A stretch of 63,984 nucleotides of DNA, the filler included, from Acidimicrobiia bacterium (GTDB lineage: Bacteria > Actinomycetota > Acidimicrobiia > Spongiisociales > CAZKJJ01), in the NCBI GenBank assembly GCA_046759765.1. It is 8 parts of 8 records of this genome, joined end to end, with 100 filler letters (N's around TTAATTAATTAA, not from the genome) between each part and the next. Parts side by side here need not be neighbours in the genome. Positions count along the whole stretch, not along the records: positions 9,045 to 17,798 come from JBHICV010000103.1; 7 more parts are not named here. One strand, given 5' to 3'. Of the stretch, positions 12,001 to 15,000 are shown in pieces. The position numbers are program-made. Position 1 is the first letter of the stretch; each line of letters starts with the position of its first letter.

Positions 12001-15000
12001 GGGCTCAGTCCAGGTCTGGCGTGCTAAATCGAAGGCTTCCTCGGCAGTGAGGATGGCGATGTTGGGCAGATTCTCCAGGGCTTGCTCGGCGATCTCTCGG
12101 GAGGTAAAGAAGAGCATCGAGCTGCAGACCTCTGACTGGGGACCGACCACGGGCTGATCGTCCCCGGTCTCGGTGGGGTTCCTCCCGGGCACGAAGACAG
12201 AAGTCACCGCGGAAGGTGGGTCTACTTCAACGACTTCGTCGGCTGTGACGGTAAGCCGTATGGTGCCTCCTGTCACCGTGTCCGTCGATTCGATCTCCCC
12301 TGTGGTCTCCAGGACTCCTGGCAGCAGGATCGTGTCCAAGGAGCACCATGCGTAGAGGTCGTTGCCGTTGATCCGGATGCGGTGTCGGGTTGGCTTGAGG
12401 GTGAGGGCCATTCCGATGAAATCGCCGTTGTCGTTGAGCTGTCCGCCCGCCGCGTCGATCGCTTCGAAAAGGTCGTCGATCTTCTGTCTCGGGAGGCCGA
12501 GGAGCTCAGACGCCCGTTGCCGTGAGACAGGCTGGCCCTTTGACAGCTCCTCCAGAAGCCCGATTTGCATCAGGGGCGAGGTGTCCACACCGGCAGCTTC
12601 GTGCTTGGTCGCGACTCTCGCCGTCCACGCCGCGGCTACTTCTTCGGTGGATGGTCTCGACACCGTCACTCACTCCCCGATCCGCGTCCGTCGATGAGAT
12701 GCAACGATCGAGGTTCTTCGATCTATTCCGGAGGAAGCTCGGGTGTTCTCCCAACTATCAGATGGTCACGCCGGTGAGGGAGCCCTCAGTCTGGCGAGAT
12801 GATGGGACAGATCAACCCGGGGCTGCAATCCCCCGGGCTCAGCCGCTCGGCTCTCTCGGCCAGTCGGTGAAGTTCCTTCTTGATGTTGCGAAGAGCTTGC
12901 ATCCGCTCGTCAATCTCCGTGAGCTTTCTCTCGACGAGGTCAGCGACATGTCTACATGGTGCCTCGCCGCCGTCCCGGATATCAAAGACGGCTCGCACCT
13001 CCTTGAGGGTTAGCCCGGCTCGTTGGGCTGAGCGGACGAAGCCGAGTCGTTTAGCGGCCTTTTCGTCGTAATCGCGGTACCCCGAAGGCGTGCGATCGGG
13101 TGGGGGAAGGACGCCAACGTCCTCGTAAAACCGGATGGTTTTGGCAGGCACTCCCGTTTCGGCGGCCAGTTGCCCGATTCTCACGAGGAGATCACCTTCC
13201 ATTCCGCTGGAAGGTATATAGTAGCGCAACTTTGTGAAGGGCCACAGGTGGAGGTCACGCTCCAATATTTCGACGACTGTGCCAACTGGAGGGTTGCGTT
13301 GAGCCGGCTGCAAGAGGTCCTGGGTAAGGACCACGAGATCGGTCTACAGCTGGTTGAGACGTTCGAAGACGCGGAGCGGCTGGGTTTCCGTGGCTCGCCC
13401 ACCGTGCTGATCGACGGAGCAGATCCTTTCGCCGACGCGTCGGCCCCGATCGGGTTCGCGTGTCGTGTGTATCGGACCGAGGGCGGAATGGACGGCGCCC
13501 CCTCCATCGAGCAGCTTCGGGATGCCCTGGGCAGGGACGCTGATCGAGGCTCACAGTGACTTGTACGAGGTACCGTCTCAGCTCGTGCTGCTCACCACAC
13601 GCCACTGGCCCGGGCAACCCTCACAGTCCTGCCAGATCTGATCTGGCGGCTCGCCCCGCAGAAGACGCTCCGCCTCTTCGCGTAGCAGCACCCCGATCAG
13701 TTGTCCCTGAGGGTCGGTGACGATAACCAGCCTTGTTCCTCGTTTGGCCATCCGATCGACGAGAGGTTGGAGGAGACCGTTCGGTCGGACAGTGGTCGGA
13801 CCGAGCTCCATAACATCCCCCACTCGACTGTGCCCTTCGGTTTCCCAAGCATCGCTGCGGAGTCGGCCCAGGACCAGCGTGTCGCAGTCGATAACGACGC
13901 ACTCGTCCCACGCGGCGTCAAAGGTTCTACGCCTTACGTCACCGAGGAGCTCGCCCGGCGTACAAGTCGGGATATCGGGACGGGTCGAATCGCTTACCCG
14001 CTGTACGGCAGGAGCCTCGCCTTCAACCGGAAGCCCAGCAGCCTTCCAGTCGGCAATCCCTGCGACGTAGTCGTAGACCATTTCGAACCCAAGACTTTCG
14101 AGCCGGCACGCGGCTCGCGGAGACATGTCTCACAACCCATCATGTCAATAGACCACCACCGGCTTGTCATCCCGCAACACCGATACGGTCTCCACGCTGA
14201 GACGGCGCAGCGGGATGCTTATAGCCCCCGGGATATGCGACTCCGAGAATTCCCATTCAGGGAGGACATCGACAATCTGCGCATCCTCTTCCTCCGTGAG
14301 TCGAAGCAACTCCCTGCGGTCAATAGAGGTAACCATCCGAGTCTCCTTTCGCTCGAGGCCTTAACCGTCACCGGCGGCCACGCTTGGGTTTGCGAAATGT
14401 CGGGCTCAATCGGGCCTTGCGCCGACGGTCCAAGGCGCCGGATGCCGACATGGGCGATGCCTGTGCCATCGACACTGTCTTCCTTGTTCACGGTTCAGAG
14501 CAACAACCCATCGCGTCAACACAATACGAGCATGTAACCGACCGGTGCGACGTGTGCCTCCGTCCCCGCGCAGCGACTCAGGCACAGAGGTGCGATCTGG
14601 ACGCTTGAAGGTCACCCTTATGCCTTGCTGCGTATACCCGGACGTTCCGCCCTGCCGGAAGCGGCTCTCATGCTGTGGGTGCAGCTTCCTCCGTAAGGCT
14701 GCGATGGCTCAGCTGCCAACGGGCGCGGTGGCATTCCTGTTCACCGATATCGAGGGTTAGTAGGTGCTCGGGTAACGGGTCTGGAAGTCGATGAGCCCAA
14801 CCCATTCCGGTTTCACGGTGATGCGAGCCATGCCGTTGAAGGTGGCTTTGGCGTGGTCGCGGAATCGGGCGCCCTGGGTCGGCCCGAGGTAGCGGAGCGC
14901 CGACTCGGCGTACTCGTCGACCGCGCCTTCGACGATCTCGATTTCGGCTCTTCCTCGGACGAGCAGGATGCTGTAAGGGGGCTTCTCGCTGTCGACGGTG

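Follow-up and report, generated by a model that had tools for sequence, protein, structure and literature searches.

Two open reading frames called side by side on the minus strand of contig C103, one for a rhodanese and one for a CBS protein, raise the question of whether they are a single gene whose product contains two selenocysteine (Sec) residues, and what such a protein would do among genes of the MerB and MerR families. They lie in a window (the whole stretch of DNA that was analysed; 63 984 nucleotides, filler included) from an Acidimicrobiia bacterium (GenBank assembly GCA_046759765.1), and coordinates count along this window unless a contig is named. The survey's finding at this locus was one rhodanese-CBS gene for a protein of about 250 residues, with two in-frame TGA codons and a CEGC end; the sequence observation itself was confirmed, and the interpretation of the locus that came with it was partly supported. 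The explanation that we favour for the whole, with reasonable rather than strong confidence, is a double-Sec rhodanese-CBS protein that acts with MerB on Hg. The gene has the following parts.

13578..14336, minus strand: rhodanese-CBS gene, 252 codons, with the ATG at 14336 and a TGA stop at 13578-13580.
14037..14315, minus strand: rhodanese homology domain, residues 8-100 (Pfam PF00581, 63 bits).
14145..14147, minus strand: UGA1, codon 64, at the rhodanese catalytic Cys position, probably read as Sec.
14130..14132, minus strand: UGA2, codon 69, last residue of the loop, probably read as Sec.
13653..14003, minus strand: CBS pair, about residues 112-228 (Pfam CBS and Foldseek).
13614..13625, minus strand: C-terminal CxxC (C238 and C241), in a beta hairpin.

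Translation of this frame through the TGAs at codons 64 and 69 gave an active-site loop that reads Y-U-H-D-G-L-U-D and a C-terminal CEGC. The rhodanese score, which is that given by the survey, exceeds the PF00581 gathering cut-off of 22.2; the nucleophile opens the active-site loop, U64 is aligned with the loop Cys of BH2092 and the rhodanese fold is matched at a TM score of 0.73 on target (Foldseek). One CBS repeat, the second, was scored by Pfam (PF00571, 25.6 bits versus a cut-off of 24), and the whole CBS pair was recognised by its fold (TM 0.72-0.88 on target versus solved CBS pairs; Foldseek). C238 and C241 are invariant in all 23 sequences of alignment A1; the CxxC is missing in distant Cys/Cys forms and in 62 of 65 short cluster representatives. 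An AF2 model of the protein had a mean pLDDT of 89.7, and the protein is soluble and has no membrane domain. The paralog reported on contig C36 (7296-8045, minus strand) was found again, with 50% identity and with the U..U loop and CEGC likewise.

In the 23 orthologs the frame upstream of the TGAs keeps a coding pattern and contains no further stops, the divergence by codon position being 0.33/0.26/0.57 upstream versus 0.35/0.30/0.60 downstream. The ends of the orthologs coincide with that of the rhodanese-CBS gene, and TAA or TAG is the stop in three of the 23. We hold with high confidence that the two called frames are one intact gene with two Sec. The converse would be that the TGAs are true stops, leaving a decayed or split gene with a 63-residue fragment and a 182-residue CBS protein from Met71, or that they are read through as some other residue without the Sec machinery. 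Gene callers and public records do give a piece of 179-190 aa (116 of the best 120 database matches are 164-196 aa), and Met71 stands directly behind UGA2-Asp. The conserved upstream frame speaks against this, and in the paralog and in 20 of 80 metagenome loci Met71 is replaced by Leu or another residue, so that translation could not restart there. TGA is also the real stop of the gene and TAA or TAG that of three orthologs, so that TGA does not serve generally as a sense codon.

The codons themselves were followed through 26 ortholog loci of the order: 17 carry TGA and nine carry Cys at site 1, and all 26 carry TGA at site 2, giving 17 U..U loops, nine C..U and no C..C. A C-x4-U loop with TGA at site 2 was found in 73 of 80 metagenome loci. 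Both TGAs align with Cys in P0003-P0005 (60-62% identity; Y-C-HDGL-C-D), and Cys occupies both sites also in L060 and in 50 more distant Cys/Cys forms, an alignment that speaks against stop codons. In the family tree the C..U forms are nested within a U..U clade, and the sole close C..C form is nested within a C..U clade. Contigs from three other runs, all DNA and from one vent-metagenome study, span both TGAs unchanged, and the variants near the TGAs in these contigs are synonymous, which supports the two TGAs as genuine.

Both TGAs therefore very probably encode Sec, given the Cys homologs, the conservation of the TGAs, a SECIS-like hairpin and the presence of selA, selB and selD. Read in this way, the protein would hold two selenols in a six-residue rhodanese cradle, the first in place of the catalytic Cys and the second where the loop ends. 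The hairpin and a second small element lie close behind or across the codons.

14099..14117, minus strand: SECIS-like hairpin with a 7-bp stem and a 5-nt loop, CGUGC; its base follows UGA2 by 12 nt and UGA1 by 27 nt.
14120..14131, minus strand: 12-nt palindrome GAGACAUGUCUC (4-bp mini-hairpin), overlapping UGA2.

For a bSECIS, the legend of Fig. 2 in PMC13188914 gives a stem of 4-16 bp, a loop of 3-9 nt with G in one of its first two positions, a distance of 16-37 nt from the UGA and an MFE of at most -7.5 kcal/mol. The hairpin agrees with that legend in stem, loop G, spacing (19 nt from UGA2 and 34 nt from UGA1 to the hairpin loop) and energy (-12.3 kcal/mol). In 31 Sec-form sequences 99.5% of its cells are paired, with two compensatory and four G-U changes, and all seven stem pairs form in 30 of the 31, compared with 13 of 50 Cys/Cys forms. 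The synonymous difference is 0.00-0.25 at the hairpin versus about 0.5 elsewhere. Since those 13 Cys/Cys forms also make it, the hairpin is in part due to the coding sequence for R-A-A-x-R-L; it varies little, and its support is thus conservation together with only two compensatory changes. A 74-nt region around the TGAs folds no better than its shuffles (z 0.22) and has an MFE structure that differs from the conserved hairpin, and an Rfam scan of 13500-14400 matched no family. A single hairpin within the coding region would, on our assumption, serve UGA64 and UGA69, which lie 15 nt apart. The palindrome is fully paired in 15 of 17 U..U forms and three of 14 C..U forms, a comparison confounded by shared descent; as a family-wide element the 4-bp mini-hairpin after UGA1 found no support, with 83.9% of cells paired and most C..U forms broken.

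The genome encodes selA (416 bits), selB (338 bits) and selD (390 bits), all above their cut-offs, and selD carries an in-frame TGA of its own. Contig C114 ends in the first 17 nt of tRNA-Sec, in keeping with the partial assembly that the survey had noted; a whole copy was found neither in the genome nor beside selA, selB or selD (aragorn and Rfam; assembly 92% complete, 308 contigs), and four of five carrier relatives have one. Throughout the order selB is above its cut-off in 171 of 201 genomes and in all 25 carriers, and its presence in the carriers says little because it is nearly universal there. The incomplete tRNA-Sec is what the genome adds in favour of ordinary stops; with the Cys alignment and the conserved hairpin set against it, this explanation is highly improbable.

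A profile search returned 315 matches at E<=1e-30, alike in kind to the 274 of the survey. Among the 150 top-ranking cluster representatives, 65 fall below 200 aa and start with M-S-x-R-A right behind the second TGA; the public names of the short pieces are 'CBS domain-containing protein' or 'hypothetical protein'. Thirteen further rhodanese matches with two in-frame TGA, as claimed previously, were not seen among matches at E<=1e-10. Rhodanese-CBS is thus a large family usually called as a shortened 'CBS protein': gene callers systematically split a large selenoprotein family in two. No NCBIfam model covers it, so that counts of the Actinomycetota selenoproteome are too low. The literature search, which did not extend to Haft & Tolstoy (2025) and Haft & Gwadz (2023), returned no paper on a Sec rhodanese-CBS protein or its link to mercury. 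The protein is a new architectural variant among the known Sec-rhodaneses, and the natural series C..C, C..U and U..U with one small coding-region SECIS offers a handle on the decoding of two UGAs by one hairpin.

What the protein does has to be approached through its neighbours. Both copies lie in MerB/MerR/ArsR loci (Pfam and NCBIfam scans, gene order), as had been reported, and around the C103 copy the following genes were identified.

11965..12669, minus strand: MerB-family lyase 1 (Pfam MerB 86 bits; NF009710 143 bits, cut-off 193).
12786..13184, minus strand: MerR-family regulator, transcribed divergently from the DF gene (TIGR02051 98.4 bits, cut-off 150.85; Pfam MerR_1 and MerR-DNA-bind).
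13248..13559, plus strand: DF-family thioredoxin-like gene with two invariant Cys (NF049942, 64.1 bits, cut-off 70).
14757..15404, minus strand: PPOX-class (F420-type) oxidoreductase-like gene, start uncertain (TIGR03618 67.7 bits, cut-off 79; Pfam PNPOx_N 43 bits).
15245..16039, minus strand: MerB-family lyase 2 (Pfam MerB 87 bits).
16134..16514, plus strand: ArsR/SmtB regulator (NF033788, 81.5 bits).
16575..17405, plus strand: membrane protein with Cys62 and an in-frame TGA at codon 188 (17136-17138), CcdA/DsbD-like by the names of its homologs only.

On the minus strand the gene order is MerB2, the PPOX-like gene and then rhodanese-CBS, and the DF gene (its two Cys invariant in alignment A3) is convergent with the rhodanese-CBS gene. 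Of 14 loci of relatives, 12 have DF immediately upstream and in the same orientation, 11 contain MerR and six contain MerB; in soil-type metagenome loci, many of them shorter than 3 kb, a MerB-like gene is directly upstream in 13 of 80 and DF is present in 20 of 80. The steady neighbours of the rhodanese-CBS gene are therefore the DF-family gene, MerR and MerB, and not the CcdA-like membrane gene. Both MerB copies retain the motifs W-C-x-L-D and C-x4-F-F, which we take to hold the MerB catalytic residues, and a canonical MerA with an NmerA domain is encoded on contig C85. MerR and both MerB copies score below the equivalog cut-offs, which leaves room for a metal different from Hg. In the MerB2-like gene of contig C36 an apparent second in-frame break was considered as a Sec codon and found to be a frameshift. 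A role of the rhodanese-CBS protein in MerB-linked handling of mercury or organometals is suggested by this neighbourhood, and we consider it fairly probable. That two divergent subfamilies both show an operon link to MerB suggests a part for selenium in bacterial handling of mercury or organomercurials, with consequences for the mercury cycle of soils and vents if so.

The membrane gene had been placed beside both copies, and this was correct for C36, where it is adjacent; in C103 it is 2.2 kb from the rhodanese-CBS gene with three genes between. The further claim that it adjoins all six orthologs fetched was not reproduced: it was found in one ortholog locus, L040, in none of the 14 extended loci of relatives and in three of 80 metagenome loci. 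The label 'CcdA-type' is backed by the names that sources give to its homologs and by precomputed PF02683 on four of 93 of them, and not by scans of the protein itself, for which no significant family was obtained in Pfam, NCBIfam or a PDB sequence search. Its paralog in C36 has Cys where the C103 copy has the TGA at codon 188, and five of the 93 homologs carry a fused HMA metal-binding domain.

These data bear on an alternative in which no metal is carried and the U-x4-U loop cycles between a diselenol and a selenenylselenide, re-reducing the thiols of DF or MerB or exchanging electrons with the membrane protein, much as the rhodanese part of TsoB may. Such a redox relay would suit the DF protein, which is thioredoxin-like with two invariant Cys, the CcdA names and PF02683 assignments, and the membrane gene next door in the operon of C36 and at L040, L171 and L176; TsoB, moreover, is listed in the table of PMC13188914 as a fusion of a U-x4-U rhodanese with a DsbD-like membrane domain. 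We regard it as unlikely, since a membrane partner is lacking from all 14 extended loci of relatives and from 77 of 80 metagenome loci, the membrane protein matches the membrane part of TsoB only at E=0.65, and the HMA fusions point to metal rather than to electrons.

The most likely role of the rhodanese-CBS protein would be to accept Hg(II) or organomercurials on its selenols and thiols, together with MerB and the DF protein and under the control of MerR/ArsR. Through ligand exchange with MerB or DF its diselenol (or thiol-selenol) loop would acquire Hg(II) or the organomercurial, the flexible C-terminal CxxC might relay the metal to MerA with its NmerA domain, or else to the Cys/Sec membrane protein, and the CBS pair could gate the transfer through binding of an adenosyl ligand. 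As a specific Hg(II)-acceptor mechanism this is proposed tentatively. An Se-Hg-Se chelate may be too stable for such a hand-off.

A classical rhodanese activity was also weighed, in which a persulfide or perselenide on the loop would deliver sulfane sulfur or Se, for instance for HgS/HgSe precipitation or for Se metabolism. The fold, with a nucleophile in the catalytic position, and weak matches to the generic sulfurtransferase models GlpE, PspE and MoeB/MoeZ are compatible with this. Typical rhodaneses, however, have Arg at the last loop position, where every sequence of the alignment has Sec or Cys and then Asp; the H-D-G-L loop is acidic where sulfurtransferase loops are basic, and no sulfur- or selenium-metabolism gene occurs in the conserved neighbourhood. 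Such an activity is accordingly judged improbable.

The acceptor reading can be extended to a selenium-dependent organomercurial detoxification module, undescribed in the literature searched, in which the rhodanese-CBS protein would be joined by DF and MerB and in some cases by the CcdA-like Cys/Sec membrane protein; we regard this extension as rather doubtful. In such a module the selenol cradle would strip Hg(II) from MerB or aid protonolysis of the Hg-C bond, and the ligands would be the two Se together with the invariant His65 and Asp70, a convergent echo of the two-Cys-plus-Asp site of MerB. If this were true, a selenium-dependent module would occur widely among the Actinomycetota of soils and hydrothermal vents and would escape present-day annotation.

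Of the known systems, TsoB was the best NCBIfam match (NF045694, 43.2 bits, rhodanese part only), as the survey had stated, although only marginally ahead of generic rhodanese models (40.5 and 39.7 bits). In the table of PMC13188914, with a citation of Haft & Tolstoy (2025), TsoB is entered as a rhodanese/DsbD fusion-like selenoprotein, 'rhodanese form 5', with UxxxxU and two Sec; on that table the likeness to the present protein, two Sec at U-x4-U spacing in the active-site loop of a rhodanese, holds as previously noted. The rhodanese-CBS protein differs in having a CBS pair and a CxxC tail instead of the fused membrane domain, and in its context of MerR, DF and MerB rather than tso genes. 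The earlier picture of a TsoB-like loop with a separate DsbD-like gene is thus sustained for the loop spacing and weakened for the gene, which is an occasional neighbour. Membership in TsoB was rejected, as 43.2 bits compares with a cut-off of 805, profile positions 52-168 of 572 are matched and the DsbD-like domain is not fused.

Rhodanese selenoproteins of forms 1-4, with the motifs UxxS, UxxG and CxU in the same table, and NF041203 'LYCAU' likewise have Sec at or near the catalytic site, yet they contain one Sec in other motifs and none is listed there with a CBS domain (PMC13188914). Membership in NF041203 was rejected (36.3 bits, cut-off 115), the present loop being U/C-x4-U and not C-x-U.

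The best solved match is BH2092 from Bacillus halodurans (PDB entries 3nhv and 3o3w; profile E 5e-16, 31% identity and the TM score given above), a structural-genomics rhodanese on which no functional paper was found in the literature searched. It shares the C-x4-C spacing of the loop (Y-C-W-G-P-A-C-N) and differs in being a single domain from another phylum with Cys for Sec, without the CBS pair and CxxC tail. The two-domain architecture recurs in Cys/Cys rhodanese-CBS proteins from Streptomyces, Micromonospora, Microtetraspora and Solirubrobacterales (37-48% identity), which share the signature Y-C-x4-C-D-M-S-P-R-A-A but lack Sec and the C-terminal CxxC, and form the full hairpin only in the 13 of 50 noted above. 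In nine loci of these distant members that were scanned there were no conserved neighbours and the mer context was mostly absent.

A CBS pair followed by a C-terminal Cys-based metal site is found in TA0289 from Thermoplasma acidophilum (PDB entries 1pvm and 2qh1; Foldseek match); its site is a rubredoxin-like four-Cys iron site and there is no rhodanese, whereas the rhodanese-CBS protein has one CxxC per chain. NmerA and MerP are HMA-fold carriers of Hg(II) with GMTCxxC. They are not homologous to the rhodanese-CBS protein, differing in fold and in using thiols rather than selenols, and the analogy is one of function: Hg(II) is acquired at a site of two ligands through their exchange and then passed to the next protein, as is proposed here for the selenol loop, with a C-terminal CxxC that resembles the relay pairs of NmerA and MerP.

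In the rhodanese-CBS gene two TGA codons lie in frame with the rest of the reading frame; the features concerned are as follows.

9045–17798: contig C103, which carries the rhodanese-CBS gene
13578–14336 (−): rhodanese-CBS gene, ATG at 14336, stop TGA at 13578–13580, 252 residues on read-through
14145–14147 (−): UGA1, codon 64, in frame
14130–14132 (−): UGA2, codon 69, in frame
14099–14117 (−): SECIS-like hairpin, 7-bp stem, loop CGUGC, beginning 12 nt after UGA2

In the read-through translation the rhodanese domain (residues 8–100) scored 63 bits and the CBS domain 25.6 bits with Pfam. 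An AlphaFold model, confident at a mean pLDDT of 89.7, showed a rhodanese fold and a complete CBS pair, with C238-x-x-C241 carried in a β-hairpin at the C-terminus. The active-site loop reads Y-U-HDGL-U-D. The paralog on contig C36, at 50% identity, shares this loop and likewise has a CEGC tail; His65, Asp70 and the C-terminal CxxC were invariant in the alignment. The region C17:4036–7187 of this genome holds a third rhodanese, 40% identical over the domain and free of stops; ∼1.5 kb upstream of it lies a pyridine-nucleotide disulfide oxidoreductase with a MerA-model score of 285 bits.

Both TGAs are indicated as selenocysteine (Sec, U) codons by five concordant lines of evidence. Cys was found at both sites (Y-C-HDGL-C-D) in three full-length database homologs of 60–62% identity. 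Strong matches (E ≤ 1e-43) numbered 31, came from 25 of 201 sampled genomes of the same order and each carried at least one in-frame TGA; the 26 of them that were read directly divided into 17 U..U and nine C..U forms (sites 1 and 2). Loci L031, L032 and L039 of this ortholog set were from the unpublished genomes G015, G004 and G195. In a quick family tree one clade of 30 rows was made up of the Sec forms; the site-1 switches were nested within this clade, and the only close C..C form was nested among C..U forms. The piece upstream of the TGAs evolves like coding DNA, its divergence at the three codon positions being 0.33/0.26/0.57 versus 0.35/0.30/0.60 downstream. The Met that follows UGA2 was absent from the paralog and from 20 of 80 metagenome loci, so that a translation restart is unavailable there. 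Both TGAs were unchanged in spanning contigs from three further sequencing runs of a single vent-metagenome study, in which the three variable sites near the TGAs were all synonymous. The prediction from sequence of a real double selenoprotein is thus well supported.

In its stem, loop G, spacing (19 and 34 nt) and folding energy (−12.3 kcal/mol) the hairpin agreed with the bacterial SECIS model as set out in a review (PMC13188914). Across 31 distinct Sec-form sequences 99.5% of the stem cells were paired (four G–U), and two compensatory changes (C–G to A–U and C–G to U–A) were seen; covariation support is thin. Synonymous difference at the stem Arg, Ala and Leu codons was 0.00–0.25 versus about 0.5 elsewhere. 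The 74-nt region around the TGAs folded no better than shuffles (z 0.22). The stem could also form in 13 of 50 Cys/Cys forms, so that the R-A-A-x-R-L coding sequence accounts for part of the hairpin. UGA2 is overlapped by a perfect 12-nt palindrome, GAGACATGTCTC, at 14120–14131 (−), which was retained in 15/17 U..U versus 3/14 C..U forms; the palindrome may help as a structure for UGA1 or may reflect no more than shared descent. Contig depth in four vent-metagenome runs rose several-fold over just 14085–14168 (loop plus hairpin), where many short contigs matched and outside which they diverged; many related genes of the community therefore have this stretch in common at the nucleotide level.

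Scores for selA, selB and selD were all over the cut-offs, and selD, with its one in-frame TGA, probably encodes selenophosphate synthetase in the Sec form. A clear tRNA-Sec was found in four of five carrier relatives; the assembly studied here holds only its first 17 nt at a contig end (C114:8223–8239), which match the tRNA-Sec of a relative at the 5′ end without a difference, and the remainder is not assembled. The selD gene and the neighbouring genes are located as follows.

59392–60315 (−): selD (C108:6375–7298), 390 bits, one in-frame TGA
13248–13559 (+): gene of the thioredoxin-like DF family (NF049942), described as '(seleno)protein'
16575–17405 (+): Cys/Sec membrane protein gene; C36 paralog at 8065–8934 (−) of locus L134
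L134 8946–9532 (−): MerB2-like gene of the C36 operon, frame shifting between N-terminal and catalytic parts

Contig C103 encodes MerB1, MerR, DF (opposite strand), rhodanese-CBS, a PPOX-like protein, MerB2, ArsR (opposite strand) and the membrane protein, and the C36 operon runs DF, MerB2-like, membrane gene, rhodanese-CBS; the frame change in its MerB2-like gene reflects a frameshift, unless it arose in assembly. The DF gene is a Cys form here and in all ten copies aligned, with two invariant Cys residues in Q-Y-F-x-x-C and A-C-R-x-Y. Codon 188 of the membrane protein gene is an in-frame TGA (G-F-G-U-T-G-P), where the C36 paralog has Cys; database homologs of the protein are mostly 187–200 aa long, which suggests that they were cut at this TGA. 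These homologs are named CcdA by their sources, with PF02683 in 4/93 and a fused HMA metal-binding domain in 5/93. The mer block is adjoined at 9368–11522 (−) by two lipoprotein-like genes that are paralogs and carry C-x-C motifs, one of them matching the LIC11469 family weakly; a cytochrome c gene comes after them.

DF was the immediate upstream neighbour, in the same orientation, in 12 of 14 relatives' loci that were extended by ∼8 kb per side (two from the unpublished genomes G015 and G195, and several being the same records as loci of another set); MerR was present in 11 of these loci, MerB in six and the membrane gene in none. The metagenome set consisted of 80 loci of tail-less forms, fetched from contigs among over 600 stretches that matched. 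A MerB-like gene lay directly upstream in 13 of them, 20 contained DF and three the membrane gene, with DF, MerB, rhodanese-CBS as the recurrent order. Conserved neighbours were absent from the scanned loci of distant Cys/Cys members in cultured actinomycetes. A steady linkage to DF, MerR and MerB is shown, and a putative mercury link is credible; elsewhere the genome encodes a canonical MerA that has an NmerA domain and ends in a pair of Cys residues.

When 1.84 billion cluster representatives were searched with a profile, 315 matched at E ≤ 1e-30. Among the best 150 of these, 46 were Cys/Cys forms with a C-x4-C-D loop and 65 were shorter than 200 aa and started M-S-x-R-A, which is the signature of a gene call cut at UGA2; only three of the 65 had the C-terminal CxxC. 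Y-C-x4-U-D was read in 73 of the 80 metagenome loci, the rhodanese frame upstream being intact wherever the contig extended so far, and C-x4-U is therefore the common Sec form. Judged by the sequences compared, U-x4-U with the CxxC tail is a derived clade, here in vent Acidimicrobiia. One C..U form came from a Miltoncostaeaceae MAG. Near-identical genes, on very short branches of the tree, were found in genomes whose family codes differ (f2, f3, f5, f11 and f12; L020–L043), which suggests lateral transfer of the mer-linked module.

The two Sec/Cys positions of the intact gene fall within the rhodanese cradle. In the likeliest reading, ligand exchange with MerB or DF would bring Hg(II), or else an organomercurial, to the selenol pair, the CxxC tail would then relay it to MerA or the membrane protein, and the CBS pair may be a ligand-sensing module. 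One rival reading is a pure redox relay by the loop, which would follow the proposal for TsoB-type fusions; another is that the protein transfers sulfur or selenium in the classical way.

Among solved structures the best relative is BH2092 (3nhv), whose loop has the same spacing, as C-x4-C; no known function was found for it in the literature searched, nor any paper there combining selenoprotein, CBS domain and rhodanese. The U-x4-U rhodanese loop is common to TsoB (NF045694) and the rhodanese-CBS protein; membership of TsoB is ruled out by the score (43.2 versus 805) and by the architecture, which is new among the known Sec-rhodaneses.
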